A DNA stretch of 63,935 nucleotides, counting the filler, from Dimargaris cristalligena (taxonomy: Eukaryota), in the NCBI GenBank assembly GCA_003614675.1. It is 26 parts of 26 records of this genome, joined end to end, with 100 filler letters (N's around TTAATTAATTAA, not from the genome) between each part and the next. Parts side by side here need not be neighbours in the genome. Positions count along the whole stretch, not along the records: positions 12,475 to 14,861 come from ML004227.1; 25 more parts are not named here. One strand, written 5' to 3'. This document shows positions 6,600 through 61,625 of the stretch, one piece after another. The position numbers and the translations under genes were made by a program. The notes below the pieces were generated by a model, which searched no databases, had not been told where the DNA came from, and was given only the letters and a program-made list of their open reading frames with translations. Each line of letters starts with the position of its first letter. Positions within the stretch are counted from its first letter, which is position 1.

Positions 6600-6611
6600 G
6601 GGCTCATAACC
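6600..6611 (-). promoter_or_regulatory. Primer binding site GGTTATGAGCCC (internal tRNA-iMet fragment type)
   Basis: Directly follows the LTR's CA end on the minus strand; the motif used by copia/Ty5-type (Hemivirus) elements. Confidence 0.85.
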
Positions 6612-6871
6612 TGTTGGAAATATAAGTTTGATGGTAAACGCAAGTGTCTTCAGATACAACTAAAACAATTCAAAGAAGAGAGAAAGAACCGCAAGGGGCA
6701 AAGCTAGATGCCCACGGTTGGTTTTATTGAATTGAATAATAGCAGTAATAACGATTAGGATGAAGTTCCGGTTATAGGATGATATAGTAACGGCTATAGT
6801 AAAGTCCCAAGTATAGGACGAGCCAATCACAGAGATGGAATCAGTGGGACGGGGGAAATGAATTTCCAACA
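6612..6871 (-). mobile_element. 5' LTR of the copia element (260 bp)
   Basis: TGTTGGAAAT...ATTTCCAACA perfect 10-bp inverted termini, adjacent to the PBS and gag. Confidence 0.9.
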
Positions 6872-9520
6872 ATTAGGGCCACTTACTAGTCTGAGCCACA
6901 ATGCAATTTTTCTGCTTGCTAATGGGCCAGTCAATTGGCAGCCTGGCTGAGTTGTGCATGGGTGTTTCATTGGTCACAACAAATGAGGGCCATGTGGTAG
7001 GGTGCATGCTCACATTGCAGTTTAAATAAATTATGAGCCAGGACTCGGGGGCTACCATGTGGGCCTGTGGTCCAACTCCCCAATAGTTGTGCAAATACAG
7101 ATGCAGGGAGGATCAGGATACTGTCAAATTAGGCCACTGGAACCTGTTGACAGAAATGATAACAAGGTGGGCATAAAATAACTAGTGAATACATTAATGG
7201 ACTGGGTGCAAAGATTGAGTGAATGGTAGATGAATCAGGATTGAAGTCAATTCCCTTGGGTATGGGCAATAACTGTGAGTGAGAAGTCCATAAGATCCCT
7301 GGAGCTGGCATGTTCTGAAAAGTGGACACTCTTCAGCAAGCCTGCTCCCACAATGATAGTCTGTAGACTGATAGTGGTGAAAGCCATGAACCTGANNNNN
7401 NNNNNNNNNNNNNNNNNNNNNNNNNNNNNNNNNNNNNNNTTAATTAATTAANNNNNNNNNNNNNNNNNNNNNNNNNNNNNNNNNNNNNNNNNNNNTTACT
7501 GGGTGGGAAAAGATGAAGACTGATATTTGGTGATGTTCTTCATCTTTTCCTAAACTAAAAATAGTTTGGCCGGGATATGCTATTAGAGATTAAGCAGGCC
7601 CAGCCACAACACTACCATACTATTATTATACCCATAGGTCAAAATGAAGATGTTCACTGATTGATGCAGAGTGTGTTTACAGTTATTAACACCAGATTAA
7701 ATGAGACTAATTGAAAGTACAGCCAGTCTACAATAATCTGAATATACCATCCAGACTAACGTGCATAGGCTTATTCAGTGATTAAATTGTTAGTGCAGCC
7801 TTTTCAGTAAGCCAGTTATATTATTTACATTGAAACAAACAAAGGCATATGTCCACAGCCTCCCCGCCATTATTCACACCTCCATGGTGGCATTATGATA
7901 GGTGTATGTAATAATTCAGCCCAGTTGCCTTGTTACCGACCTTTATCCTAGACTTAATTCTAAATAAACACACATCAGAATATAGATGAGGTTTATTGAG
8001 TGAACTGAAAACATCATTATAAAAAGGGCGCTACATCCAGTAAAATACTAAAAACGAAATCTACAAAACTATAAGAAAAACATTTATTAATCAATAATAA
8101 TACATTTAACCTGCACTTTGGCAGGCACCTCCCAGCTTTGATTTAGCTGGAGGCTGGTTGATTTGCTTGACCCCGGTCGGCACCTGTGAGCTCAGCCCGG
8201 GGGTCGTGGACTATGTAATCCCTCAAAATAAATGAGGGATACTGCAAGTCACCCTGTTGGGGGTGACTAAGTAGAATAATTCCCTGCATTGGTGCAGGTG
8301 AAGGCCTGAATATGGCCATTGGGCAAGGGAGGGAGGGGGCCAAGTAATGAAGAGAGAAAAAGAGGGAGGGGAATAGATCACCGTGTAGATAGATGCTTTA
8401 AGAGAATGCTGGTAAGGGTTTTGGAAATGCATACCTAGCATGTAGAACAAAAAGTAATGACTACCAAGGATGGGATATATGCTGTGTTTATATAGGCAAG
8501 GTTCAACCAGGCAGCGATGTGAAAAGTCTATTAGATAGGGTTAAGACCACTGGTAAAAAATAATAATAGATATCCCACCTATTGTTCCATACACGTAATA
8601 CTTACAACTTTTTACCGCTGGGTCACATTTCACCTACATAAATTACTACCAGAATATTTACCGACCAGATACCATGCAAGTACCTAGCAATCTCTTCATA
8701 GTGGGGTTCAATCATTCGGCTACTCCAAAAAAAATAATGGGGAGACAATGCCTTAATCAGGCGGTGTATATTAGGAACCAGCCATGGAACGGCAACCAAG
8801 CCTCAGTATTCCCTTTGTTGCCATACTTGAATAGCTTCATGAACATGTTTAACTGACGAATCTGTATTACAATAGCTATTATACTATGGGTAGGCGCTAT
8901 TATCTGGTTTACTGGTATGAGCTATTTTAACCTGCGGCACCTAATCTTGGGATATAGGGTTATGACCAAGGCTTTTGGTAGGGGGCTTCTCTGAAAAAAA
9001 AAATAGGACTGTCTTGACAACAATGCTACAACGTTCCCTGAACTTCCAGGTCTGGTTTCACCCGAGGATGATTAGACTGGCCATTCCAGTTAGACTCCTT
9101 ATTGTATCCCGCTGGAGACCTTATTTAGGGAAGATGAATCCACCTGTCAGTCATTGTAATACATTGCCGATGCCTCCCATTAAACCCCACCGGACCTGCT
9201 TAACCACCGAGCAAATGGTCACAGTCTAATCGTAACATAGCCGTAGCCATGGTCAAATGCTGCGCCCCTAATGAGAAGCACCAAGCTTCCTGTCCTTTGG
9301 TAATGGATAAAAACAATAGACAGGCCGGGAATTACTGATGACCATTCAAGTTTCCATTAGGATAAGCCATGTAAATTGAAGCCCGTTTTCATTTATATAT
9401 TACTGTTGTACTTTGGTGGCAGTGTCCCTGGTGATTGGGGATGGAAATTACAGTTCTGGATGGTTTATAGTTGGGTAGTTGTACTATACTTTCATAAAAT
9501 TAGTATAACAAGTTGGTGGT

Positions 9521-10425: not shown

Positions 10426-10432
10426 AAATAAA

Positions 10433-10651
10433 TTGAAGAATATGTTCCTACATGTTCTTTATTCTATCCTATTTATACCCAATTATGTTAGTTTATTCTG
10501 CTATCATGAGATCATTCATGTTAGCCACTTATATTTCACCTCACAGAAATTACAGTTCAATAAAACTAACCACCTAGAGGTACCTACTGTCCTCTAGCTG
10601 ATTTCTTCCCTTACTTCCAGTTTTATTTCCATTACGTTCTTAGTATTCCAA
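10433..10651 (+). repeat. Probable solo LTR, copia-like (~220 bp)
   Basis: Close copy at 20650-20872; both end ATTCCAATA, a TA-mutated form of the copia-type ...TTCCAACA end. Confidence 0.7.
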
Positions 10652-11640
10652 TAGAAACCAGATACTGTTAGCCTCCAGCTGGCTGGTGTAAAGGATACAG
10701 CCAATTTTAATCAATTTGACCAGCTCAATCCGGATTTTAAGCATATAAGATCTGAGCTGAAGAAGGTGAATTCCAAGGCCAGGGTTATTCCAAAATCGAC
10801 CATGACAACTGCCCCTAAAGAGTCTAAACCCTTTAACCCAACAGTCAAGGTAGCCACTAATTCCAGTTTTTATCAGCCTCAACCTGCTTGGGTATACAAT
10901 CCACTCAAAAATTAGCAGCCCACCTCTGAATCTACACAGGCCCCCACTGATGAACGTATGGATACCCCACCAGCCAGTTAATTGGTAAGGGATGAAGACA
11001 AAGCTGAGGCCATTTTCTATGATGCTGAATCTAGATCTAAAGTTGCCCCAGATGCCCTCTTGGTCATGCAAGAGTCTACTACCTCCACTATTTCAAAACC
11101 CTCAACCCAAATTAAACCCTAGTTCTGGTGACATTTCTTTACTAATTCTTCCCCTACCAATGTGGCCACACCATCAGCCCTTAAGCAAACTGAACCTTCC
11201 TATCTATTGAATACTTCTTCTGGGTAGTTGGGCTACTTTGGCCATACCCAGTAGGTAGTGTGAGTTCTCTAGTCAAGCAATTCTTTGAAACCTCTGTAGT
11301 CTTTATACTTGATTATTTGGGGGATAAGTTCATATACTATCACTGTATGCAATTCACTCATCCTTGTCATTATTTTGAAGTTTTATTTTGCTTAATTTTA
11401 GTATAGTTACTTATTGGGCTATTTACACTCCTGGATAATCACCAAGTCTCCATGTAGTTATGTTCTTTACTTTTTTTATTCAACCTGGATTCAATAAGTT
11501 ATAATAAAATGCACATTTAGTTATCCCATCAGTTATAGCTAATCATAAGTGTACTGCTGTGACAAGTCTATAGAACTATGGTAATTCTATCATTTTACTA
11601 ATAAGATATATATTAATTATTACATTTTTTTAATTTAATC

Positions 11641-12127
11641 TGTCAGACCTTTTAATCCAACTTCATCCAGACACTATGCTGTCCATCCCCATTAGGTCTT
11701 ATAGCACCATATTAACCTTCCCATGGTCACCCCCAGTACTATAGGATTACCCTATATCATATAACCCTTCCCCTTCTGGACTCAACCTATTTACAATAAT
11801 CACTCCAGTGCAGATCTGAAGACTCTTCTAGTTACCCTCCGAGTCCTCTAGATACTAGTACCTATGTGGCTAGGCTATTTCCCTATACCCTAGTCTTAAT
11901 AGTATTTCCCCCTCAGGACCTCCCTCTGGAGTTGTCACTATATATATATAACTAGGCCCTATTAGGACCAGTTAGATCCTTAAGCTTATTCTTCCCCTGA
12001 GTTTACCCCAATAAACTCTATATATACTCACTCCCCCTTATACTAACTAGTAATTATACTTACTGTATATCCCTTATATATCCCTACCACTAGGCCTTTA
12101 TTAGTTGGTACTGCACTCCATACCTGA
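11641..12127 (+). repeat. LTR family A variant, interrupted by family E
   Basis: Starts TGTCAGACC; homologous to 12815-13207 and to the reverse complement of 36469-36985. Confidence 0.7.
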
Positions 12128-12374
12128 TGTGGTGAACTTACCATATTTTTTACCTACTTTTATCTTTTATATATTTTTCCCACTTATTGGAAGTACGCCC
12201 CTGACAAGTTAATGAGCCCCTGCCCCTGACCCAACTGCACCCCTGTTCAAAGAATAGCTAACAATAGCTTTCTCCCTTTCTTTTTTTCCCTTCTATTATT
12301 TCACATTGAATTTATTGGTTACCCAAGTATTACCTATCCTTTGTGATGACTAATATGATTGTCTGGGAACTCCC
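12128..12374 (+). repeat. Repeat family E (TGTGGTGAACTTA...), probable LTR
   Basis: Copies at 29750-29913 (-), 32229-32598 (-) and 36986-37014 (+). Confidence 0.7.
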
Positions 12375-12474: not shown

Positions 12475-14112
12475 TTCAAGTATAAATACTCACACTTGCT
12501 GTCACCTCTTGGAACAGCAAGTCTATCATCACCTTTCCCTTTTTATCATCTATCTTTTCAAATAAAGTTTGGTTTTTAAGGATTTGATTTCAGTTCTTTA
12601 CAGTTAGCATTATGCCCTTACCTAACACTAGGACCCGCTTGGCCAAGTCTAAGTCCTGTCTGACTATTAGAAGCCTACCCCCAGGACTCTTGACAGACTA
12701 AGAGTAGATATCCCAGGTGATATTAATTAATATATATACTAAACTCTTATTATTATTTATACCTAACTTATTAATTGCAAACTTCCTACTCTAATATTAA
12801 TATATCTTCCCTAATATTAGACCTTCTAATCCACCTTAATCTAGCTAGCTTAGATGTCTAACTATATTAGGCCCTATAGTGCCATATTAGCTTTCCTATA
12901 GTCACCCCTGGTACTATGGGATTATCCTATATTATATAACCCTCCCCCTTCTGGACTCTGCCTATTCATACTAATTACTCAAGTGCTAATCTGAAGACTC
13001 TTCTGGTTACCCTTCGAGTTTTCTGAATACTTATGACTATCCAACTAGCCCATTTACCTATACCTTAGTTTAGTAGTATCCCCCTCCAGGGACCTCCCTC
13101 TGGAGTTATCCCTATGTATATATAACCAGGCCCCATTGGGACCAGTTAGATAGCTTAGCTTATTTCTTACCTCTTAGTTTACCCTAATAAAACTCTATAT
13201 ATACTTATATAGTACCATCCAGAGGTTGGCACTTATCCCCAGACTATGGACAGCCAGTTATCCTCATCAGGGGGCAGAATATACCATAATATACAATGGT
13301 GGTATTATTCCCAGCATTTTCCCACTGAAATTACCTCCTATACTGTGGCATACACAAAAAAATATATCTTATACTCATGGTTTACATTAAAAAGTCCACT
13401 ATTCTTCCTTGTATTTAAAAGTTTGACCTATTTTTCAGTGGATTCCTTGTCATTCCATTATTGACCTTTTTTCTATGTCCCTTTCCTTGTATCCAGCAGC
13501 CCCTAAGGCCCACAGGATAGTTACATAAGTAACTAGCAAATTCCTGTTTATTTAGAGAAAGAATAATCATCACTCATTTTAAATTTCAAACTCATTTCTA
13601 CTATTCTTTGAACTCAACCATGACTTTTATTAATTATTAATTATTAACTCCCTTAGTTCTATTATTTCTCAATAAATATTGACACCCCTTGTTTATCCCT
13701 CTGTTCCCCATCTGGTTTACTAACTATCTGCCCCTTTGTTACCCCTGCATGATGACACCCAACTCTGCCCCTGTCTCCTCTAACTCCATAAACCTCCTGT
13801 CTTTGACAACCAGGGAGCTAGCTGCCACAACTTTTGGCTGTGCTGATAAGGAGGCTGCTACCTCCTTGTAAAACCCAAAGGCCACTGGCAATAGGTTGGA
13901 CCTCCCAGGTAGTATACTTACCCCCCCCCCATATACCTACTAATAAGTGTGCCCACTGTATGTCCCTTACATATACCTATTGTAGCCTTTATTAGTTAGT
14001 ACCTGTACCCTGTACCTGATACTAGTAGCCTGCTTAGCCAAGCCTAAGCCCAACCTATTGTTGGAAGCCTATCCAAAGGACTCTTGACAGACTAAGAGTG
14101 GTTAACCTGGGT
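12475..14112 (+). mobile_element. Nested LTR cluster: family G end (~12540-12602), family A pieces (~12620-12720, 12815-13207, 13915-14112), family F (13208-~13910)
   Basis: G matches 19933-19994 and the reverse complement of 59111-59166. F matches the reverse complement of 57470-58226. A matches the other copies. Confidence 0.7.
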
Positions 14113-14961
14113 ACTACCCATATAGCTAGAGATAAAAGGATTTGAGATGTCCAAAATTAAGGAAATTATAGATTAATGATAAATATAACTTTGTATCACC
14201 AAGTTAAAAGAAAATATAGAAATAGTGTGAGTCTTGAAAGAATGGTCTAAATAGCTAATAGCTTAGCATAGATGCAATAAGGTCGGGTTTTATACTGGGC
14301 TTGAACCATGTTCTCCAAGTGCTGGGTTAATTAATTACCATGGTGCTATATAAAATAAAAGACATCAGTAAATACTAATGCTTCCAAAAGGGTGTTCACT
14401 ACCTCATTATATTAACATGAAGGAATAGGGGGAAGGTTAATGTATCTTCCCTTAGTAGAAACATATAAGGTCTTCAATCAGCATGTTAGATTATTGAATG
14501 TTGGAAGTTCTAATAGAAGTTGGCTTTACCTATAGCTATTGGTTAATATCAATTCGAAGAAATTGTTTCAGGAGTTCAAGGTGGTACTTCCTCTATTTTC
14601 GGGGTAGCAGAAGGCCACCAAAAAGGTCATTATTGGTTTGGACCATTGGCAAAAACCCCGCCCATGTTTTTTTTTGGTATATAGCAATTCACTACCAAAA
14701 AATTATGTTGTGGTGTGGCAGAACGGCTAGTATAATAATAGGCGGGAATGCCTTATAGTCAAAAGATGTAGTAAAATCGAACTAAAGATAACTGTAGGTA
14801 AAACTACCGGTACAGTTCAGAAGAATGAAAAAAGAGATGTTTTATTAAGAGTTGCGATTCTNNNNNNNNNNNNNNNNNNNNNNNNNNNNNNNNNNNNNNN
14901 NNNNNTTAATTAATTAANNNNNNNNNNNNNNNNNNNNNNNNNNNNNNNNNNNNNNNNNNNN

Positions 14962-16889: not shown

Positions 16890-17608
16890 TCGGTCCGCCC
16901 AGTTGTTTTGGGCCAGAGCCAGGCCAATTTGTGTTTCCCGTTAAATTGACCTTTCTTATGGGCCACCCTTTGTTTTTTATCCACCATTAAATGGGCATTA
17001 CATTCAATAGAGTGGTGGTGTATCCGGGTGATTTGGAACATTTCGGTTCACATTTGGTTTTTTCCATTAATTGCGGGGTTGGTGATAATGGTTGAGGGCC
17101 CAGTTTGCTGAGTCCTCGGGGCTTCGAGTGGACATAGGAGGGGGGGGATATGCTGGTTGCTTTGGGTCTATTCGTATAACAAACAGCGTGGCGTACGGCA
17201 ACACTCCCGTCCTTCTATTGACGGACAGTATGGAGGAGGGATATATAGAAGCCACCTATTGCCAGGACATCACGTGAGAGGCGGTCCTCTTTGTTCCAGT
17301 GCTGATTGCGTCGTGGGTGCTGGAGGGACATTGGATAGTACTATGCTNNNNNNNNNNNNNNNNNNNNNNNNNNNNNNNNNNNNNNNNNNNNTTAATTAAT
17401 TAANNNNNNNNNNNNNNNNNNNNNNNNNNNNNNNNNNNNNNNNNNNNTTGCCCAAACCACCTTCACTGGCTGTCTCGCGCCAGGTCGCATCGTCACCTCC
17501 GCTGGTTTCTCCGCCTAGGCCCCCGAATACAAGGTCATCTCCGTGGCCGACTCAAGTATCCCCGTGTCGTGTGCATTTGCGCAATTGATTGTGGCCATCT
17601 TACACACA

Positions 17609-18034
17609 ATGGACGTCCTGGCTGGAATACTGGATGACTGTATACTGTCGGGGTTGGAACATGATGTGTCGGCTTTTGCGATGGCTTTACTCGATGTAGC
17701 GGATATGAGACCCAGTAATTACTACATTACTCGTAGCGAACATCGCTTTACGTTTGGTCGTTGCGATCTTACTGTAGCCAGCTTTGACACCAGACATGAG
17801 ATACTGGTAATTGAGTGTAAGAGTAAAGGAGCTCGCGAGGCTGCTGGTGTGGAACAATTATTCGAATATATGGTCAAATGCAATTTTCCTCACGGGTTCC
17901 TCATGTATCCTGATCGAACAATCTACTTTCGCCAAAACGAAGAAGGAGTGCCTATGAAAGTCCGTACGTATTGCCATAAAAATGACCTCAGTGATATGTT
18001 GTCGCAGGTTCGGAGTTTCCTGGTACCCCGCTAA
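17609..18034 (+). CDS. Small PD-(D/E)XK restriction-endonuclease-fold protein (~141 aa from the first ATG)
   Basis: E...GRCDLTV...ILVIECKS...GVEQLFEYM...GFL gives D, ExK and QxxxY motifs; intronless. Confidence 0.75.
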   Translation: MDVLAGILDDCILSGLEHDVSAFAMALLDVADMRPSNYYITRSEHRFTFGRCDLTVASFDTRHEILVIECKSKGAREAAGVEQLFEYMVKCNFPHGFLMYPDRTIYFRQNEEGVPMKVRTYCHKNDLSDMLSQVRSFLVPR

Positions 18035-20649: not shown

Positions 20650-22416
20650 TATTGAAGAATATGTTCCTATGTGTTCTTTATCCTATCCTATTTAAATCCA
20701 ATTATGTTAGTTTATTCTGCTATCATGAGATTATTCATATTAGCAACTTATATTTCACCCTACAGAAAATTACAGTTCAATAAAACTAACCACCTAGAGG
20801 CACCTACTATCCTCTAGCTGCTATCTTCCCTTTCTTCCAGTTTTATTTCCTTTAAGCCCTTAGTATTCCAATACCAGATTCAAGGGCTGGGAATTTAGTC
20901 TAAATGAGATACAGTAATAAATATTAGAAAGAGTTACATAACTTGTACTGATGGTTCCTATACCAGTTATATATTCATTTTTCTCCTTTGTTAAGAATCC
21001 CGCCATTTCTGAGGAGTGACTCAAAACTTACAAGAGTCAGAAACTACAGCCTAAATAGTATTATCAGTAAGAAAATATCTAAAAATAAAATCAAAAGCCA
21101 GGTATTTTCCACTGGGAAATAGAGCTTCATTAAGAACTTAATAAATGATTAGAAAAATAATAACGGAGCCTAAGTGTGAGGAAGAAGTATGTGGATCCCA
21201 ATAAAAGGTCAATCCGTGGTTGGATACTTCCCAGTATGGCCCATTAAGTACAGGATCTTAACTATAGCTGTGGGTGTAGGGGGGGGTGTTAATTGGAATA
21301 AATAATAATTAGTAACAGGATTTGCCCCTTGGGTCTGCCATGGCCAACGTTAAAGCAGCCTGCTGAAGAAGTGCACCCCCATGACTGTTGGGTTAAAATA
21401 AGAAGACCCTGATTCAGCCCTAGCGCAATGTGAAATATGAAGGACGGCTGCCCCCCACCCCCAGGGTTCCTTTATAGTACCCAGCAGGGCGACATGGGAC
21501 AGGAAATGGTATTGGGAAAAGGGCACGACTACTATGTATGGTACCTACTACTTAATGGACCAAATTAGCCAACATCTTCATGGCGGGAGATTAGTCTCCT
21601 AGGTCAGTCTTGGACTATGCAAAACAAGCGCAGGGGAGAACAGTAAGGCAGGGAGGGAAATTGCGGGTAGAGAGGCATTGGGTGGTGTCAGGACAAGGAG
21701 GGGGGGATGGACCGGGGCCGGGTGAGCCACACTACCTCTTCTACTCACCCTCTCTGTATTTCTCGCCAATCAATGTTCAGGAACTACTGAACCCGGCGAT
21801 CAAATGATCTGTCGATGGGACTCCTTTAGGCTCTAAATAATTTGCTGGGCCAATTGATCCAGATGGTGGCTCCCAGCAGTCCAGTGTTCAGGCTGGTCGA
21901 AGGGGGGAGAGTAGGGGATTTACATGTTTGGGGTTGGCTGAGTAATCTTGTCCATACCATTCTCTGCCTGGTTTGGTTTAATTGACAACCAAAACTACAA
22001 AATAAACAGGTAGTCGGGGTATTGAAATGCCCCTGGCTCTGCTGTAGTTTCTGGTTTCATTTAAAGCACCAGGGCCAATAGTGGCCAAAGTGTGCGAGGG
22101 CAAGCCACACTCTATGGGTATGTGCGTGGATCTTTCTTTTTGGGACAAAGGAACTCGATGCACAAGCTCCACTGGTCAAAGATGGGATGCTTCTATTTCA
22201 CCTTCGGTATTGTTAGAATAGCCAATGGAATGAGTATTTTTATTAGAAAGAGGAACTAGTAGTAAGAACTTTAATGATAGCAATGTGAGCACTAGTAAAC
22301 TAAAGGATCAGGGTGCNNNNNNNNNNNNNNNNNNNNNNNNNNNNNNNNNNNNNNNNNNNNTTAATTAATTAANNNNNNNNNNNNNNNNNNNNNNNNNNNN
22401 NNNNNNNNNNNNNNNN

Positions 22417-50084: not shown

Positions 50085-51898
50085 ATGATCGACTCGGGTT
50101 CGAATAATCCTTCCTTGAGCTTCTGCTTTCCTGTGGTCCCAGCGAACCACCAGCCCTCCACTGATCTACCCCTCGAAAGGCCCCGCGTCGCTCTTGTGGG
50201 CTACGCCGCCTTGGCAAACAACCTTTGGTTTTCCGATCTGAAGCCCTTCCATCGGGACAACTTTGAACGAAGCAGCCAGCTAGCCACGGCTATTATCCTA
50301 AGTCGCTACTACCGCCAGCCTGCGATTGCCTTTGCCCACTGGCAAGGTCTGGTCGGACCAATGGACGTCGTTGACCTGTCTCCAAAGAAACTACGGCTTG
50401 TTCTTGCCGATGTGATCCCCGACACCCCTGTCTCCGCTGCCATCCTGCAAACCCATGTACCTGGCCCTCTCTCTGATCCATCCAATTCTCCTGGCCCAGT
50501 GGTCGAAGTCATTCTCCACACTGATGTAGATGGCACCGGAGTGATCCGTTCCCTGTCGAAATCCGGAAGCAGTCACAGTCGACCCGAGGAGGTTGAGACA
50601 GATCCGCATATCACTGATCTATTGGCCAGAAGCACCACCCATCTGGCCATTAGTTGCGCATTTTACCAGGGGCAGGCCCAGGTCACAGTGACTTATGCCC
50701 GAGCCCTATACCGCGATTCTGCCGTGGCGGAGTTCATCAGCCAGTTTGGAACTATCTTCTCGGCTGTTTCCCGGACATCGGAGAGCAACCAGTCCACCCT
50801 TATACGCGATATTCCGTGGGTTAGCGACCAGGAAAAAATCCGCCTCTTAGATTTCTCCCAAATGACTAAGCCAATCCAGGGAGATTACCGGCCTTTCCAC
50901 CACCGTTTCAGTGACTGTGCCAAACACTTTCCGGACCATCTTGCCCTGGTCCACGGTCGTGAAGAATGGACCTACGCCCAGCTAGACTACGCCAGTTCGG
51001 AACTGGCCAGAGTTCTAGTAAATCAATACGGGGCTCGCCCTGAGGTTCGGTTTGCGCTGCTTATCCCCAGGTCAATTGCCTATCATATGACCATTCTGGC
51101 TGTACTCAAGTCAGGGGGTGCCTACGTACCCCTTGACCCCAACTATCCCGCTAATCGCATCCAGTTCGTCCTAGAGGACAGTGACGCTTCGCTGTTAATT
51201 GTTGCTGAATCAGTACTCGGGAGTGTCCCCGGCCAGCTCCAGGTACCCACCATGACTGTGGATCAATTCGTCCAGCAGCCTGTATTTACTGAACCTTCTG
51301 GCTTCCGGTCATTCCCCTCGTCACCGAAAGATTTGGCCTACATAATCTATACCTCCGGGACCACTGGTCGCCCCAAGGGCGTCTTGATTGAACACCGAGG
51401 TGTGGCCAATTTATCCACCGATCAGTTGTTAGGGAGCACCTACGGGCCGGGTCGCCGCGCTCTCCAAACCGGATCGGTTGCATTTGATGGTGTTCTTGCA
51501 AACACCCTTCGATCATTTTCCTCTGGCAGCACTCTTGTGGTCTCGACAGATAACCTACTGGAAGACTTGCGGAATGTCAATACGGGGTTTCTTACAACCT
51601 CATTTCTATCTCGCTTGAACCCTCTAGAATTTCCGGAGATGAACACAATTGTTGTTGGCGGGGAAGCTCTGCTACCAGAGCAGCAAGCCCTCTGGGCACC
51701 CCACTGTCTCCTAGCAAACTATTACGGTCCAACAGAAGCCACCGTCTACTCCAATGTAGCGTTTATCGGCCCGGGTGACGATATTACAATCGGTAGGCCT
51801 ATCCACAATGTCTTCAATCTAGTGGTTGACAATGAACTTCAGTTAGTGCCCGTCGGGGTTCCCGGTGAACTCCTCATTGGCGGTGTGGGTGTGGCCCG
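50085..51898 (+). CDS. Non-ribosomal peptide synthetase, copy 1 (degenerate C-domain C-lobe + adenylation domain), 3'-partial
   Basis: A1 WTYAQLD, A2 LKSGGAYVPLDP, A3 LAYIIYTSGTTGRPKG, A4 FDG, A5 NYYGPTE, A6 GELLIGGVGVA; YARALYRDSAVAEF resembles the C-domain end. Confidence 0.93.
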
Positions 51899-54248: not shown

Positions 54249-54348
54249 NNNNNNNNNNNNNNNNNNNNNNNNNNNNNNNNNNNNNNNNNNNNTTAATTAA
54301 TTAANNNNNNNNNNNNNNNNNNNNNNNNNNNNNNNNNNNNNNNNNNNN

Positions 54349-55824
54349 TTTAATAGTTTTCTCGTGGCTGGGGTTACCCTGCTCTACCATGGTGATAAAA
54401 ATCGATTTGGGATGACGGGCCCGCCCGCGGGATTGGATATAGGCGATTACGGTATGGAAAAGATCGAAGCGAATCACCACATTACAAGCCTGGATATCCA
54501 AACCCTCTTCGCCTACCGCCGTAGCGACCAGCAGGTTCAATTCCCCGCTGCCGAAGCTCTGTATACAGCGCTGTTGGGCCTTGTACCGGGTCCCTAGTCC
54601 CTGGTTAGTGGTGGATACCGACTGCCCGATCAGCAAACCCGGCCGGAGGAAGCCCAGACGGGCTGTGTCCCGAATCAAACGGTGGACGAAGTAGGCCGTC
54701 AAACGCCGCTGAATAAACACAATGCCGCGAAAGACATCGGTCCGATGTTGGAAGGTGGCTAGCACATCAATTAACTTCATCGCTTTCGGGGTCAGCCGGA
54801 GGCCCGTGTAGGGCCGACTGGCCGACTGGGCGTCGTAGCGCTGAATCAGGCCAGTCAGAATGAGATGGGAATGTGGTTTTAGGGGTCGGAAGCCCTCACT
54901 AGTTCGACCTTGCTGAGGATCGGTGGTGGGGGTAGACTGGGCGAGGGTACGCCAAAAGGTATCAGCCCCCCAAACACCGAGTTCCTCCAACAGGCCATCG
55001 GCATTGGTGATTAATGAATTGAACCCCGGGTGCTCCGAAAGGGGCACCTTAAGATAGCCGTGGAGACAGTTGGCTAGGTGAGGGGTGGCCATGGCCACCT
55101 CATAGGTTACCTTGGCTTCGCGGGGTTTATTAAGGACCCGCTCCAGCATGGCGCTGGGAACGGTGAATATCCGGGACTGTAGATTTTCCTCAAGGGTTCG
55201 GGCGCACAGTTCGATGCTGGCCTTTAGGCACAGCGGCGAGGCGGTCAGGCCAAATATGCGGGGCCGGGTGGCCGGGGGTTCGCGTTTATAAAATTCGACC
55301 ATGATACGGTTGTACGGGTGGGCCTTACGGGCGTGGTGGCATTCGTCAAAGACCAGCAGGTGGAACTGGTCCAGGCGAAGAAAGGCGTGGCGGAGGGCGT
55401 CCAAGAATACCTGGGCCGTCATGACAAAGACGTCGCTCCGCTGGCAGTAGTGGTCCCAATGACTGGCGTTCCAATTATCAGCCCCCATGTCCCCACAAAA
55501 GGCATTGACCCGAAGTCCGGACTGGGTTTGAATCGCCCGAGACTGCTGCACAACCAGCGGGACCAAATTGACCAGAAACACGCTCAAACGCCGTTCGGGA
55601 AGGGGGAGCCCGGCCGTCGGGGGCGGCATTGGGACAGCCGCCCCAGTGGCAGCAAAGTGCTGAATTAGCATGGTAGCAATAAACGTCTTGCCTGCCCCGG
55701 TGTCGAGAACCACAATGGTGTTGCACTGGAGGGCGGCCTTGAACAAGGCAATTTGGTACTCGCGGGCGTTAAAGGACGCGGGGGCAGCGCTCACCGCGGC
55801 CGGGGTTTCGTCGTTGGACACCAT
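54349..55824 (-). CDS. Dicer-like protein, N-terminal DExD/H helicase region, 3'-partial
   Basis: AREYQ...NTIVVLDTGAGKT, VFDECHHARKAHPYNRIM, RIFGLTASP, ATAVGEEGLDIQACNVVIRFD, YIQSRGRAR. Confidence 0.92.
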
Positions 55825-57469
55825 TCCAAGGGGTGGGCAGTAGGAATGGTAGGGGTGGGATAGTTAAAATTACTATAGCATACCCCAGAGGCAAATATAA
55901 TAACGAGGCAGATGGGGAGGGGGGTTACTAGAGAAAAGTGTCAAGGAAGCGAGTTGAGAAGGATGGGTGGGCCATGGGGGCTCGGAAGCCGGGCAGGCCT
56001 AATATACCCATCGCCAGTTGCCAGCGACTTTTGGGGCTCTGGTGTGGGAAAGGCGGGGCGTCAAACGGCCAGCTAGGTCATGGCCACACCCAACCTACTT
56101 GCCCTCAACGAGGCGCGTGCCTCTCCTCCTCTATATACCCAGTTGCCATAGGTTTGGTAGGCTATAAGACTATAGGCTTTCATCAGTTGCTAATGAACCC
56201 TGTCAACAGCGCAGCGTCAGTCTTCGTCAATAAAGCCTTCCGTCTGGTTGGAACCTTTCACCGGGGTGGGGGCGTCTTCCAATGCACCCAAATGGGAACT
56301 AGTCTATACCGGAAGACGCAGTTATTACCATACAAAGCGAGCAATAAACAGTTCAGACCCGCCACTTTTAAGCCGCCCCTTCCAAATACATTCACAATCA
56401 AATCGCTCTGAGCTCGACCCATTTGCCTTGACGGGTTCAATTATGAAGGCCTGCTGCTCCCTCCCGGCCAATTCGGATAGCTATCCCTTCAACACGCCTA
56501 TAGAACAGCGGTTCTGAAATGACACGTCTCATTTAAACAGGCGGTACCAGCAGTTAGAATCGAACCAAGAGAGGGAGGGGGCTTGTCCAGCCGCACCAAC
56601 TAGTCTTCGTCAAGGGCGTATAGCCCCCCCCCCCCCATCCACCGTTTGACGAGACAGGCAGGGCACGATTGATAAATATTACGAAAAGAGAGGGGGGACT
56701 GGTAAAANNNNNNNNNNNNNNNNNNNNNNNNNNNNNNNNNNNNNNNNNNNNTTAATTAATTAANNNNNNNNNNNNNNNNNNNNNNNNNNNNNNNNNNNNN
56801 NNNNNNNATTCAGTATAGGAATAGTCCTTTAATAAGTAGTGGAAAGTAGCTTTAAAGTATTGAAAAATAGTAAAAAGTAGTTAAAGAAAGGCAATTTTTT
56901 ACTAGTCCGGTTGCCAGACATCAATTTACATAGTACACTTTTTTTTTGGCTTTCCCAAGTCATTATTCATAGAGTAATTATAGGTCTTATGATTGATCAC
57001 AGGGTCGGGGATCATTTTTCCCTCATTTTAAAAAAAAGTCCCATCAATCTACCTATTTCCCATTTCGATAAAAAAAATAGTCCTGCTACATCAATTGGAA
57101 CTTTCATTCAAACCATTATATAGCTTGATTGAACTTCTCCCATATACTGTTACCATTGGATATTGAATTTGGGCAGGTTCCAAATGACATAATCATTGTC
57201 ACTGTCTGGAGTTCAACTAGGTTTCAACCACTTGGCCTGGAGGCTATATGTTTCACTGGGTAGTATTTTGTAAGTACCAGCATTAGTGTTGACAATGCCA
57301 CCTACAAAACACCAGGTGTATGGATTGCTAGCTGGTTCCCAATTGTGCCGCATGTAAGGATTGGCCCCATAGATGGCCTGTCAGTAGAGAGCAGTTCCAT
57401 TTGCTAGGACAGAGGTAACATTAATAAGAAGCATGACCAAGTTGAAAATCTGTTGGAAGGTAAACATGT

Positions 57470-58226
57470 ATAACCTGGGACATCTGGCCTATTGTTAGCA
57501 GCCTTCAGGATTTGCGAGGAGGCAGTGGCCTCCTTATCAACATGGCCTGAAGTTATGGTGGCCAGCTCCCTGGTGGCAGAAGATGGGAGGTTCACGGAGT
57601 GGGATGAGACCAAGGCAGAATTGGACACTGACATGGTGGGTTTTCAGAGGGGGTGGGTGGTCAGTGGATTGGACAGAGGATGGGGGGGGAGGATATAATA
57701 AATGATGTGAAAGTTTTATTAAAAATAAATATAAAAACAGTGATGTTAAATGATAAGAAATAATCAATAAAAAAATTGGGACTGAGTTCAAGGGATAGTG
57801 GAATTTGAGCTTCAAATAAAACGAGTGATGATTGATGTTCCAAATAAGTGGGAATTCACTGACTACTTATGTAGCCATCCCATGGGCCTTAGGGGCTGCT
57901 GGGTGCAAGGAAAAGGTTGTAGAGAAAAGGTTGAGAAATAGAACAAGATGGAATGATAGGGAATCCACTGAAAAATAGGTCAGACTTTTAGATATAAGGG
58001 AAAAACAGTGGGCTTTTTAATGCAAACTACAAGTATAAAGAAATGAATAATATTTTGTTAGCTTTTGGTGTGTGCCACAGTGTAGGCAGTATATATATAT
58101 AAATATTTGTAGGTTAATGGCAGGAGTGATACTGCCATTGCATGTTACGGCATATTCTGCCCTCTGACAATGAGGACTGGCTGTCCATAGTCCAGGGATA
58201 AGTACCGACCTCCGGATGGCACTACA
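57470..58226 (+). mobile_element. Family F: 3' end of an LTR retrotransposon (ORF end, purine tract, LTR ending ...ACTACA)
   Basis: Homologous to the reverse complement of 13208-13910. Purine run near 57676-57693 and a CA terminus at 58226. Confidence 0.6.
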
Positions 58227-59050: not shown

Positions 59051-59811
59051 ATGGGAATGGGTTTATTAGACTAAATATTAGAAAAGACAAAACAAAAGAG
59101 AAGTTGCAAGCTGTAAAGAACTGAAATCAAATCCTTGAAAACTGAACTTTATTTGAAAAGATAGATNNNNNNNNNNNNNNNNNNNNNNNNNNNNNNNNNN
59201 NNNNNNNNNNTTAATTAATTAANNNNNNNNNNNNNNNNNNNNNNNNNNNNNNNNNNNNNNNNNNNNATCACTGACAAAGTATTGCCTGGCCTTTTTTAAT
59301 TGGATTGGTACATTGGATCATAACAGACGTAGCAATGTTTTGCCCTATGTCCCATTTAGGTAGAGGACACACCCCATATTAGCTGTTCACGCAGGGGAGC
59401 ATCAATAATTGGATATATCAAGTATGTAATAAAACTAATATGCGTTGGACTTTACTAGTGAATGCGACACGGGGCTTGCTTATTAGTAACTGGTCGGGAT
59501 GACTAGGCCAAAGAACCTCCACCGAAAACAGTTTTAAACTGGGGGACCGACGGCTCCATAGCCAGTCTACCCTCCCGGATTAATGCGAAACAGTTCCCCT
59601 GGAAACTCACATAATAGCTACTCATGTACGGGAATATATAAGTAGTCTCCAACATCATTGCCGCCGAAATTTTACTCAAGTCCCCGACTTATCATCACCG
59701 CCGACAAAATTGGTATAGCTTGCCCACGATTATATACTTATTAAGATTGCCATTATTTTCACGGATTTACCCTATTTTTGGATTTGCTATCCAAATTCTG
59801 ACTTATCCGCG

Positions 59812-61625
59812 ATGATCGACTCGGGTTCGAATAATCCTTCCACAATCCTGCGCTTTCCCATGGTTCCAGAGGACCACCAGCCCTCCACTGATCTACCCCT
59901 TGGGAAGCCCCGCGTCGCTCTCGTGGGCTATGCCGCCTTGGCGAACAACCTTTGCTTTTCCGATCTGAAGCCCTTCCATCGGGACGACTTTGAACGAAGC
60001 AGCCAGCTAGCCACGGCTATTATCCTAAGTCGCTACTACCGCCAGCCTGCGATTGCCTTTGCCCACTGGCAAGGTCTGGTCGGACCAATGGACGTCGTTG
60101 ACCTGTCTCCAAAGAAACTACGGCTTGTTCTTGCCGATGTGATCCCCGACACCCCTGTCTCCGCTGCCATCCTGCAAACCCATGTACCTGGCCCTCTCTC
60201 TGATCCATCCAATTCTCCTGGCCCAGTGGTCGAAGTCATTCTCCACACTGATGTAGATGGCACCGGAGTGACCCGTTCCCTGTCGAAATCCGGAAGCAGT
60301 CACAGTCGACCCGAGGAGGTTGAGACAGATCCGCATATCACTGATCTATTGGCCAGAAGCACCACCCATCTGGCCATTAGTTGCGCATTTTACCAGGGGC
60401 AGGCCCAAATCACAGTGACTTATGCCCGGGCCCAATACCGCGATTCAGCTGTGGCAGAGTTTACCAGTCAGTTCGGAACTGTCTTCTCGGCTGTTTCCCG
60501 GACACTGAAGAGTGATCAGCCCGCCCTTGTGCGAAATATTCCGTGGGTTAGCGGCCAGGAAAAAGCCCGCCTCTTGGACTTCTCCCAAATGACTAAGCCA
60601 ATCCAAAGCCCCGATCGCCCTATACATCACCTCTTCAGCGACTGTGCCAAACGTTTTCCTGACCAGCTTGCTCTGGTCCACGGCCGTGAAGAATGGACCT
60701 ACGCTCAGTTGGACTACGCTAGCTCTGAACTGGCCCGAACTCTAGTACAGCAGCACGGGGCCCGACCAGAAGTTCGGTTTGCGCTGCTTATTGCCAAGTC
60801 AGTCGCTTATACTGTGGCCATTCTGGCCGTGCTCAAGTCGGGGGCCGCTTATGTACCCCTCGACCCGGATTACCCCGCCGATCGAATCCAGTTTGTCCTT
60901 GAAGACAGCGTCGCTTCAGTGTTAATGGCTACTGAATCGCTACTCGGGAGTGTCCCCAATCAGCTTCAGATACCCACAATATCGGTAGATCCATTTATCC
61001 TGATGCCTGTACTTACGGAGCCTTCCGACTTCCAGCCTTTCGCCTCATCCCCCAGTGATTTGGCATACGTAATCTACACCTCTGGAACAACCGGTCGACC
61101 CAAGGGCGTTTTGGTCGAACACCGAAGTGTAGCTAATATGTCTACTGATCCATGTTTAGGAGACGCCTATGGCCCCGGCCGGCGCGCCCTCCAGTCCGGA
61201 TCCATTGCTTTTGACGGGGTTCTTGCAAATACATTTCGGCCCCTTTGCACCGGTAGTACTGTTGTGGTCTCGACAGACAACCTGGTAGGAGACTTACGCA
61301 ATGTAAATACGGGGTTACTTGTCACCTCATTCTTATCTCGCTTGAATCCCCTAGACTTTCCTGAAATGAGTACACTCGTTACCGGAGGAGAGTCCCTGCT
61401 TCCAGAGCAACAGGCCCGGTGGGCACCCTACTGTCTTTTAGCAAATCACTATGGACCAACAGAAACCACGGTCTACTCTAACGTGGCGTTAATTGGGCCA
61501 GTTGACGATATTACCATCGGTAGGCCGATCCGCAACGTTTTCAATCTTGTGGTCGACGATGACCTTCAGATAGTGCCCGTCGGGGTTCCCGGTGAACTCC
61601 TCATTGGCGGTGTGGGTGTGGCCCG
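59812..61625 (+). CDS. Non-ribosomal peptide synthetase, copy 2 (twin of 50085-51898), 3'-partial
   Basis: Same architecture and A1-A6 motifs (LAYVIYTSGTTGRPKG, NHYGPTE, GELLIGGVGVA). Confidence 0.93.

Follow-up and report, generated by a model that had tools for sequence, protein, structure and literature searches.

C-to-T decay at CpA as well as CpG in the dispersed repeats of Dimargaris cristalligena

Introduction

Do the repeats of the zoopagomycotan fungus Dimargaris cristalligena lose cytosines at CpA as well as at CpG, and if so, by what kind of process? The question is raised by an LTR that has lost all of its CpG and whose TG..CA ends now read TA..TA. It lies in a stretch of 63,935 nucleotides, called the window here, which consists of ~26 contigs of ~2.4 kb with N spacers between them, from an assembly of 30.65 Mb in 2,220 contigs (GCA_003614675.1). 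An earlier note on this DNA had proposed that the mutator hits CpA/TpG in addition to CpG, that simple decay of methylated CpG does not predict this, and that an active RIP-like process or non-CpG methylation is at work.

Repeats of the window

Along with NRPS, NOL10 and ATG9 genes and Ty3 and copia-like fragments, the window contains the following repeats.

13208..13916, plus strand: family A solo LTR, 709 bp, CpG all gone, TG..CA ends now TA..TA
13204..13207, plus strand: left TSD (CTTA), the 4-bp target-site duplication of the family A solo LTR
13917..13920, plus strand: right TSD (CTTA), the 4-bp target-site duplication of the same LTR
12815..13203, plus strand: first part of a family B repeat (~583-bp family with TG..CA ends), terminus TA, host of the family A LTR insertion
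13921..14116, plus strand: remainder of this family B repeat, ends approximate (self-BLAST matches 13926-14116 to 30029-30220 and 36659-36479)
11641..12128, plus strand: family B copy with the TG terminus intact, sister of the copy at 12815
36469..36987, plus strand: family B copy without CpG, used as a search query
57466..58226, minus strand: second family A LTR, 5' TG intact, 6 CpG, the comparison copy of the earlier note
20650..20873, plus strand: family C short LTR, 224 bp, both termini TA
10430..10653, plus strand: family C LTR copy, 3' terminus TA at 10652-10653
37188..37467, minus strand: copy of a fourth repeat family, terminus TA against TG in its sister at ~9524, element cut by the contig end

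Judged by the TG..CA termini of its family and by its TSD, the element at 13208-13916 is a solo LTR. Its terminus at 13208 reads TATAGTACC, CTTA stands on both sides, and the 3' end is likewise TA. It has 42 matches in the genome, and among the 33 scored family A copies the 4-bp TSD was perfect in 22 and had one mismatch in 8. The 5' end of family A copies was TG in 34 and TA in 2 (n = 37), and the 3' end was CA in 30 and TA in 5 (n = 36). In family C (n = 26), TG and TA occurred at the 5' end in 15 and 11 copies and CA and TA at the 3' end in 18 and 7, with a 5-bp TSD in 13 of the 26. Family B, which has at least 948 candidate places in the genome, gave TG in 29 and TA in 14 at the 5' end, and CA in 28 and TA in 17 at the 3' end (n = 46). 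The family B and C samples are skewed towards TA termini because decayed queries fetched them. A 5-bp TSD was seen in just 6 of the 46 full family B copies, and the flanking sequences of the commoner subtype are unrelated; family B, including the copy at 12815, is thus treated here as a candidate LTR family whose status such scarce TSDs do not establish.

Both sequence pairs that the earlier note had quoted (the reverse complement from 58226 against 13208, and a second pair) are present, as are its TA termini at 12815, 13208, 37467 and 20872; a further TA end that it placed at 10651 exists but lies at 10652-10653. Its reading of the termini as LTR ends goes beyond the TSD data for 12815, which belongs to family B. 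Its second quoted pair makes weak single-site evidence, with the three CpA-type sites 13283, 13290 and 13293 splitting 18:17, 13:23 and 21:15 among copies.

Substitution spectrum

We aligned 36 and then 40 copies of family A, 51 of family B and 28 of family C. For families B and C, sampling drew on the best-scored 40 of 948 and 191 candidates, respectively; these samples comprise 30 loci each plus copies found in other loci and are skewed to decayed copies. A copy was scored as changed where its two nearest relatives shared a trinucleotide from which it departed in the central base alone. In a strict count, columns were dropped if any copy showed CG or if both CA and TG occurred.

In family A, the order of rates was CpG > CpA > CpC = CpT (38/98, 176/1871, 42/1996 and 48/1861, respectively). 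CpA is thus not the main target in repeats; in the pairwise comparison below, CpG is affected ~10 times more strongly. Under the strict count, CpA>TpA changes still exceeded those at CpC and CpT in each family: 90/939 against 88/3849 in family A (ratio 4.2, column bootstrap 3.0-5.7), 69/294 against 128/3036 in family B (5.6, 4.2-7.4) and 35/403 against 24/1111 in family C (4.0, 2.6-6.6). The changes were spread over 39 of 60 CpA columns in family A, 19 of 24 in family B and 19 of 23 in family C, and the reverse change, TpA>CpA, ran at 1.2-2.3% against 9-23% forward. The LTR at 13208-13916 itself carries private C>T changes at 14/63 CpA, 3/63 CpC and 3/58 CpT sites. These counts confirm that CpA is targeted besides CpG and, with CpG-derived columns removed, that plain CpG decay does not suffice. 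The earlier note had named a CpA rate no higher than that of CpC and CpT, ancestral CpG excluded, as the outcome that would overturn its claim; the rate was higher in all three families.

A pairwise comparison of 97 independent repeat pairs with 82-99% identity, binned by CpG o/e, related the two losses to each other. The CpA/CpY ratio dropped from 2.9 through 2.7 and 1.75 to 1.05 with rising CpG o/e, and the CpA excess relative to the CpG excess was 0.146, 0.086 and 0.096 in the three CpG-poor bins, against 0.04 in the CpG-rich bin. In CpG-poor surroundings, neither changes at CpC and CpT nor transversions were more frequent. Copy by copy, CpA loss correlated with CpG loss (rho 0.32, p 0.04), and the CpA load varied among family A copies (chi2 95, df 35), in part because of branch length. 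Some CpG-affected pairs showed no CpA excess: the 21234-22316 pair had changes at 10/32 CpG, 7/127 CpA and 21/286 CpC+CpT sites, and the L173/L037 pair at 21/47, 5/66 and 16/143. Chosen post hoc, these pairs hint at two processes. RIP composition indices were uninformative for the focal copy (TpA/ApT 1.05, substrate index 1.23).

Confinement to repeats and gene controls

Across ~200 kb of the larger contigs, CpG o/e averaged 0.05 in 23 of 44 repeat intervals and exceeded 0.6 in 284 of 323 non-repeat intervals, the loss being limited to repeat islands of 1-3 kb. The borders of these islands are sharp, and genes adjoining a decayed LTR retain their CpG. CpA is not depleted in repeats (CpA o/e 1.02) because CpG decay replenishes it.

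Two gene copies in the window served as negative controls.

49538..51898, minus strand: NRPS gene copy 1, without CpA excess, CpG o/e 0.79
59267..61625, minus strand: NRPS gene copy 2, CpG o/e 0.85

This pair (2.36 kb, 84.6% identity) differs at 34/222 CpA, 41/276 CpC, 48/191 CpG and 33/205 CpT sites. Five independent subtilase pairs, drawn from 20 of 28 loci, gave a CpA/CpY ratio of 1.05 overall and 0.82 when limited to fourfold sites. The NRPS and subtilase paralogues (75-85% identity) are therefore without CpA bias; as selected sequences whose identity is little above the 80% required for RIP, they are not decisive against it. Among duplicates of more than ~400 bp and 80% identity, such gene pairs (the subtilases at 82-86%), close to the limit and selected, were spared, whereas a 3.2-kb duplicate of 95% identity was affected. 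Three duplicates of 1.3-1.6 kb remain 99.5-99.9% identical and are possibly very recent or allelic, and Ty3 copies with long open frames are still present.

The NRPS paralogues form a family in the genome. Of the 28 subtilase (S8) loci in the genome, 25 are stop-free over the matched portion, and open frames of ~870 aa are common among them.

Strands, context and neighbourhood

In Neurospora, each round of RIP shows single-strand polarity, and the earlier note had suggested looking for per-copy strand asymmetry or bursts as a sign of an episodic process. Neither appeared. The two strands changed at similar rates (97/1122 and 79/749 in family A; 93/356 and 61/274 in family B), and simulation detected no strand heterogeneity among copies (p 0.68 and 0.97). 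Same-strand runs were borderline, with 155 of 277 consecutive events against 142.5 expected (p 0.064), and CpA events were not clustered (45 against 47.5). The absence of bursts could reflect blurring by many past rounds. In the 3.2-kb duplicate (L211/L212), which is free of CpG, 46 CpA changes were interleaved on the two strands (15+/15- and 9+/7-). Its LTR and TSD were in place before the duplication, and the changes accrued later in both copies. The same duplicate (contigs C1783 and C1809) has a 379-aa open frame, broken in the other copy, that had no match in Pfam or the Atlas.

No clear preference was seen for the base at -1 or +2 around CpA. In a distance test, CpA changes were not closer to CpG-derived columns, and spill-over from neighbouring CpG was rejected for lack of this effect. 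CHG-type methylation was likewise rejected, as CAG was changed at 33/369 sites against 12-14% elsewhere.

The CpG o/e of copies follows that of their flanks (rho 0.65). At CpA, nine copies with CpG-rich flanks, five of them 223-bp LTRs, had 20/178 changes against 14/496 at CpY, and 42 clustered copies had 162/1257 against 87/3321 (clustered versus isolated, p 0.63); for the 223-bp LTRs in CpG-rich surroundings, the counts were 6/85 and 4/196. Because isolated and clustered copies were equal in CpA rate, heterochromatin spreading was rejected as the driver of the CpA changes. This independence from the neighbourhood suggests that the repeat itself is recognised, as in RIP or MIP. The 223-bp elements of family C were affected 4-fold, isolated ones included, although some of their changes may predate solo-LTR formation.

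Four of five public sequencing runs, compared over locus L162, behave as one strain, with no differences between them in unique DNA. The 16 differences listed among them lie in or beside repeats and are too few to date the process. At this single, non-focal locus, the run from a second study equalled long pieces of L162, repeat-side ones included, with 0 differences. No similar stretches occurred in the other genomes compared.

Methyltransferases and related enzymes

A loose search of the gapped assembly with PF00145, TIGR00675 and a Dimargaris DNMT1 protein returned two methylase loci only, a DNMT1-RFD gene and DNMT2; RID, DIM-2 and DNMT5 were not found by this search, which also missed short DNMT2 exons. 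The DNMT1 locus carries RFD, BAH and methylase domains, and its best matches are from Dimargaris, Tieghemiomyces and Dispira (49-52% identity), a placement of the host within or close to Dimargaritales (Zoopagomycota) by this single gene. It matches DNMT1 structures at 136 bits, against 62 bits for PDB 9baq (DIM-2). Compared with its closest relative, the gene is truncated by ~430 residues at the contig end, so that the C-terminal part is missing. The second locus has the PPCQP and CFT motifs of DNMT2.

Related domains were also noted. A zf-4CXXC_R1 (CDCA7-like) domain in two exons lies at C13:59583-60302; CDCA7F fungal proteins with this domain are described from Zoopagomycota (10.1101/2023.01.30.526367). 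In a loose first look, PF03167 matched pieces of a UNG-type uracil-DNA glycosylase only (C2211, C678), with no TDG-like match. A DEAD/ResIII helicase frame at 54301-55863 of the window looks Dicer-like, which would matter for small-RNA targeting.

Discussion

The excess at CpA is genuine, specific to repeats and well supported by counts; it is probably a variant of methylation-linked TE decay, a RIP-like process being the possible alternative. In Tuber melanosporum, the C>T signature of TEs is CpG-dominant with CpA added and is linked to MIP-like methylation, which is coextensive with repeats at a CG:non-CG ratio of ~3:1 (PMC4352252, PMC4165359); a CpG+CpA signature is also given for TEs of Aspergillus niger and A. 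fumigatus (cited in PMC4352252). The Dimargaris pattern appears to work like TE decay at CpG and CpA in Tuber, being confined to TEs with CpG first and CpA second. The cases differ in that Tuber and Aspergillus are ascomycetes and the surveyed genomes with a CpA signature had RID/Masc1, whereas only DNMT1 and DNMT2 were found here.

RIP in Neurospora crassa, which involves RID and DIM-2, shares with Dimargaris the CpA>TpA changes on repeats, the sharp borders and the sparing of genes. In contrast, CpG is the main target here, clusters and strand runs are lacking, 223-bp repeats are affected although the minimum for linked RIP targets is ~400 bp (PMC3318451), RID and DIM-2 were not found, and CpA o/e in repeats is 1.02. 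With three defining features absent, judged by RIP criteria taken from PMC3318451 and PMC11969663, the pattern should not be filed as RIP. The Dim2 mutator of Zymoseptoria tritici is mitotic and acts from CA to TA, with >98% of C>T at CA (PMC8016269). It resembles the present case in changing CpA to TpA in methylated TEs (methylation of the TEs would have to be assumed here) and in not requiring a sexual cycle; it differs in sparing CG, here the ~10-fold stronger target, and in its DIM-2 enzyme, for which no gene was found here. Pucciniomycotina with Masc2/DNMT1 only show CpG/TpCpG hypermutation of TEs (PMC3318451, PMC4352252); the enzyme class and the main target are the same, but the CpA signature is missing there.

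The best reading, and one that we hold to be somewhat probable, is the decay by deamination of repeat-directed 5mC, major at CpG and minor at CpA, where the methylation is what we infer. Transposon-derived repeats would be recognised copy by copy, via small-RNA/heterochromatin or MIP-like pairing, and their cytosines would be methylated strongly at CpG and to a lesser degree at CpA; the simplest agent would be the DNMT1/Masc2-type (RFD-BAH-methylase) enzyme of this genome. Deamination of 5mC to T would then proceed through numerous separate events spread over a long period, stripping CpG first and CpA ~10 times more slowly. Several observations count for this 5mC decay: the order of contexts and its confinement to repeats; the presence of a DNMT1-RFD gene together with a CpA loss that tracks CpG loss; targets of 223 bp, below the linked-RIP size; balanced, interleaved strands without clusters or a clear -1/+2 preference; and a CpG:CpA rate ratio of similar order to the CG:non-CG methylation ratios of DNMT1-bearing basidiomycetes and Phycomyces. 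In these basidiomycetes, methylation amounts to 2.76-16.4% at CG and 0.38-2.47% at non-CG sites (PMC7862722); TEs of Phycomyces are methylated at CG and CHH, and in Linderina 5mC is located in repeats (PMC11258239). A 2026 review describes 5mC as near-undetectable in early-diverging fungi (PMC13297926).

Other points count against 5mC decay driven by DNMT1. In a published survey, DNMT1-only basidiomycetes were CpG-only and the CpA signature occurred just with RID/Masc1 (PMC4352252). CpA changes show no proximity to CpG-derived columns, targeting is independent of the neighbourhood, copies differ in CpA load, and the DNMT1 gene is truncated. The Zymoseptoria CpA mutator, moreover, shows no simple dependence on methylation levels (PMC8016269). 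As to the two processes put forward by the earlier note, CpA methylation of repeats fits better and active episodic RIP fits worse.

Two processes may instead be at work, DNMT1-type CpG decay and a separate, active CpA>TpA mutator that is premeiotic and RIP-like, or mitotic and Dim2-like as in Zymoseptoria; we regard this as possible but doubtful. The agent would be an unassembled or divergent methyltransferase, whose gene the assembly gaps could conceal, or methyltransferase-coupled deamination. CpA is the Neurospora RIP context, the damage is coextensive with repeats, sharply bordered and independent of the neighbourhood, CpA changes are unrelated to CpG distance, and the borderline same-strand runs and the CpG-affected pairs without CpA excess (post hoc) point the same way, as do the CpA-RID link (PMC4352252) and a RIP-index signal reported, with caveats, in Entomophthorales, in Zoophthora radicans (PMC11105155). 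This separate mutator sits poorly with the absence of RID and DIM-2 among the methylase loci found, the lack of strand bursts and clusters, the dominance of CpG, the short targets, the spared gene duplicates (which are, however, selected and little above the 80% limit), and the persistence of 99.5-99.9% identical duplicates and of Ty3 copies with long open frames. We think it unlikely that a DNMT1-class CpA mutator independent of RID and DIM-2 recognises dispersed repeats down to ~220 bp in this zoopagomycotan; if so, RIP-like defence would be older than Dikarya or would have evolved twice.

Without methylation at CpA, poorer repair of deaminated C at CpA, or slowed replication, in silenced repeats would also raise CpA>TpA, and the glycosylase search (UNG-type only) and the restriction of the CpA excess to CpG-stripped DNA agree with this. 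A general repair failure is not seen, however, as CpC, CpT and transversions are not elevated, and we know of no repair bias that yields a 4-5-fold effect at CpA, which counts against this explanation; we rate it improbable. Errors of reverse transcriptase, or cDNA editing by a cytidine deaminase, deserve still less credence. Families A and C are LTRs, but both strands changed at similar rates, and the context is 3' of the cytosine, unlike the 5' context preference of AID/APOBEC enzymes. Retrotransposition editing is largely refuted by the 3.2-kb duplicate, whose changes followed a duplication in which LTR and TSD were already present. Least credible of all is an artefact, whether from unrecognised ancestral CpG, from wrongly polarised changes or from amplification damage in the assembled sequence. 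Copies were fetched through likeness to decayed queries and the second example quoted in the earlier note is poorly polarised, but the effect survives the strict filter, the reverse rate is low, the second-study run agrees with L162 (one non-focal locus), and gene paralogues are unbiased under the same unpolarised count; at the level tested, an artefact is refuted.

The 4-5-fold CpA bias departs from the published association of CpA signatures with RID/Masc1 (PMC4352252). Two options follow: a genuine CpA side activity of a fungal DNMT1 that has scarred the whole genome, or RIP-like mutation beyond Dikarya. Composition and k-mer screens can miss such a bias because CpG decay holds CpA o/e near 1. 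A k-mer screen of 1,239 genomes scored 8 of 8 Zoopagomycota, one Dimargaritomycetes species included, as 'no_rip' (PMC12543289, supplementary file 12). We found no report of CpA bias in Dimargaritales repeats in the literature searched, in which subscription journals and the tables of PMC12543289 were partly covered.

Some further elements were noted. Three family A LTRs (L022, L020 and L023) retain a CpG o/e of 0.75-0.9 despite 6-20% divergence from their relatives; they either inserted recently, from a lineage active over a long time, or escaped the process. A ~260-bp repeat family (window 6608-6876; L059, L086, L111, L161) has a CpG o/e of 0.56-1.05, with CpG changes at 7/11 sites in a 95% pair and small CpA counts. 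A PD-(D/E)XK nuclease-like frame of 171 aa lies at 17519-18034 of the window. In two Ty3/gypsy elements, L219 (C1480) and L220 (C1993), gag and protease are separated by a dUTPase domain, as is known from elements of Postia, Phanerochaete and Tuber (PMC2864245).
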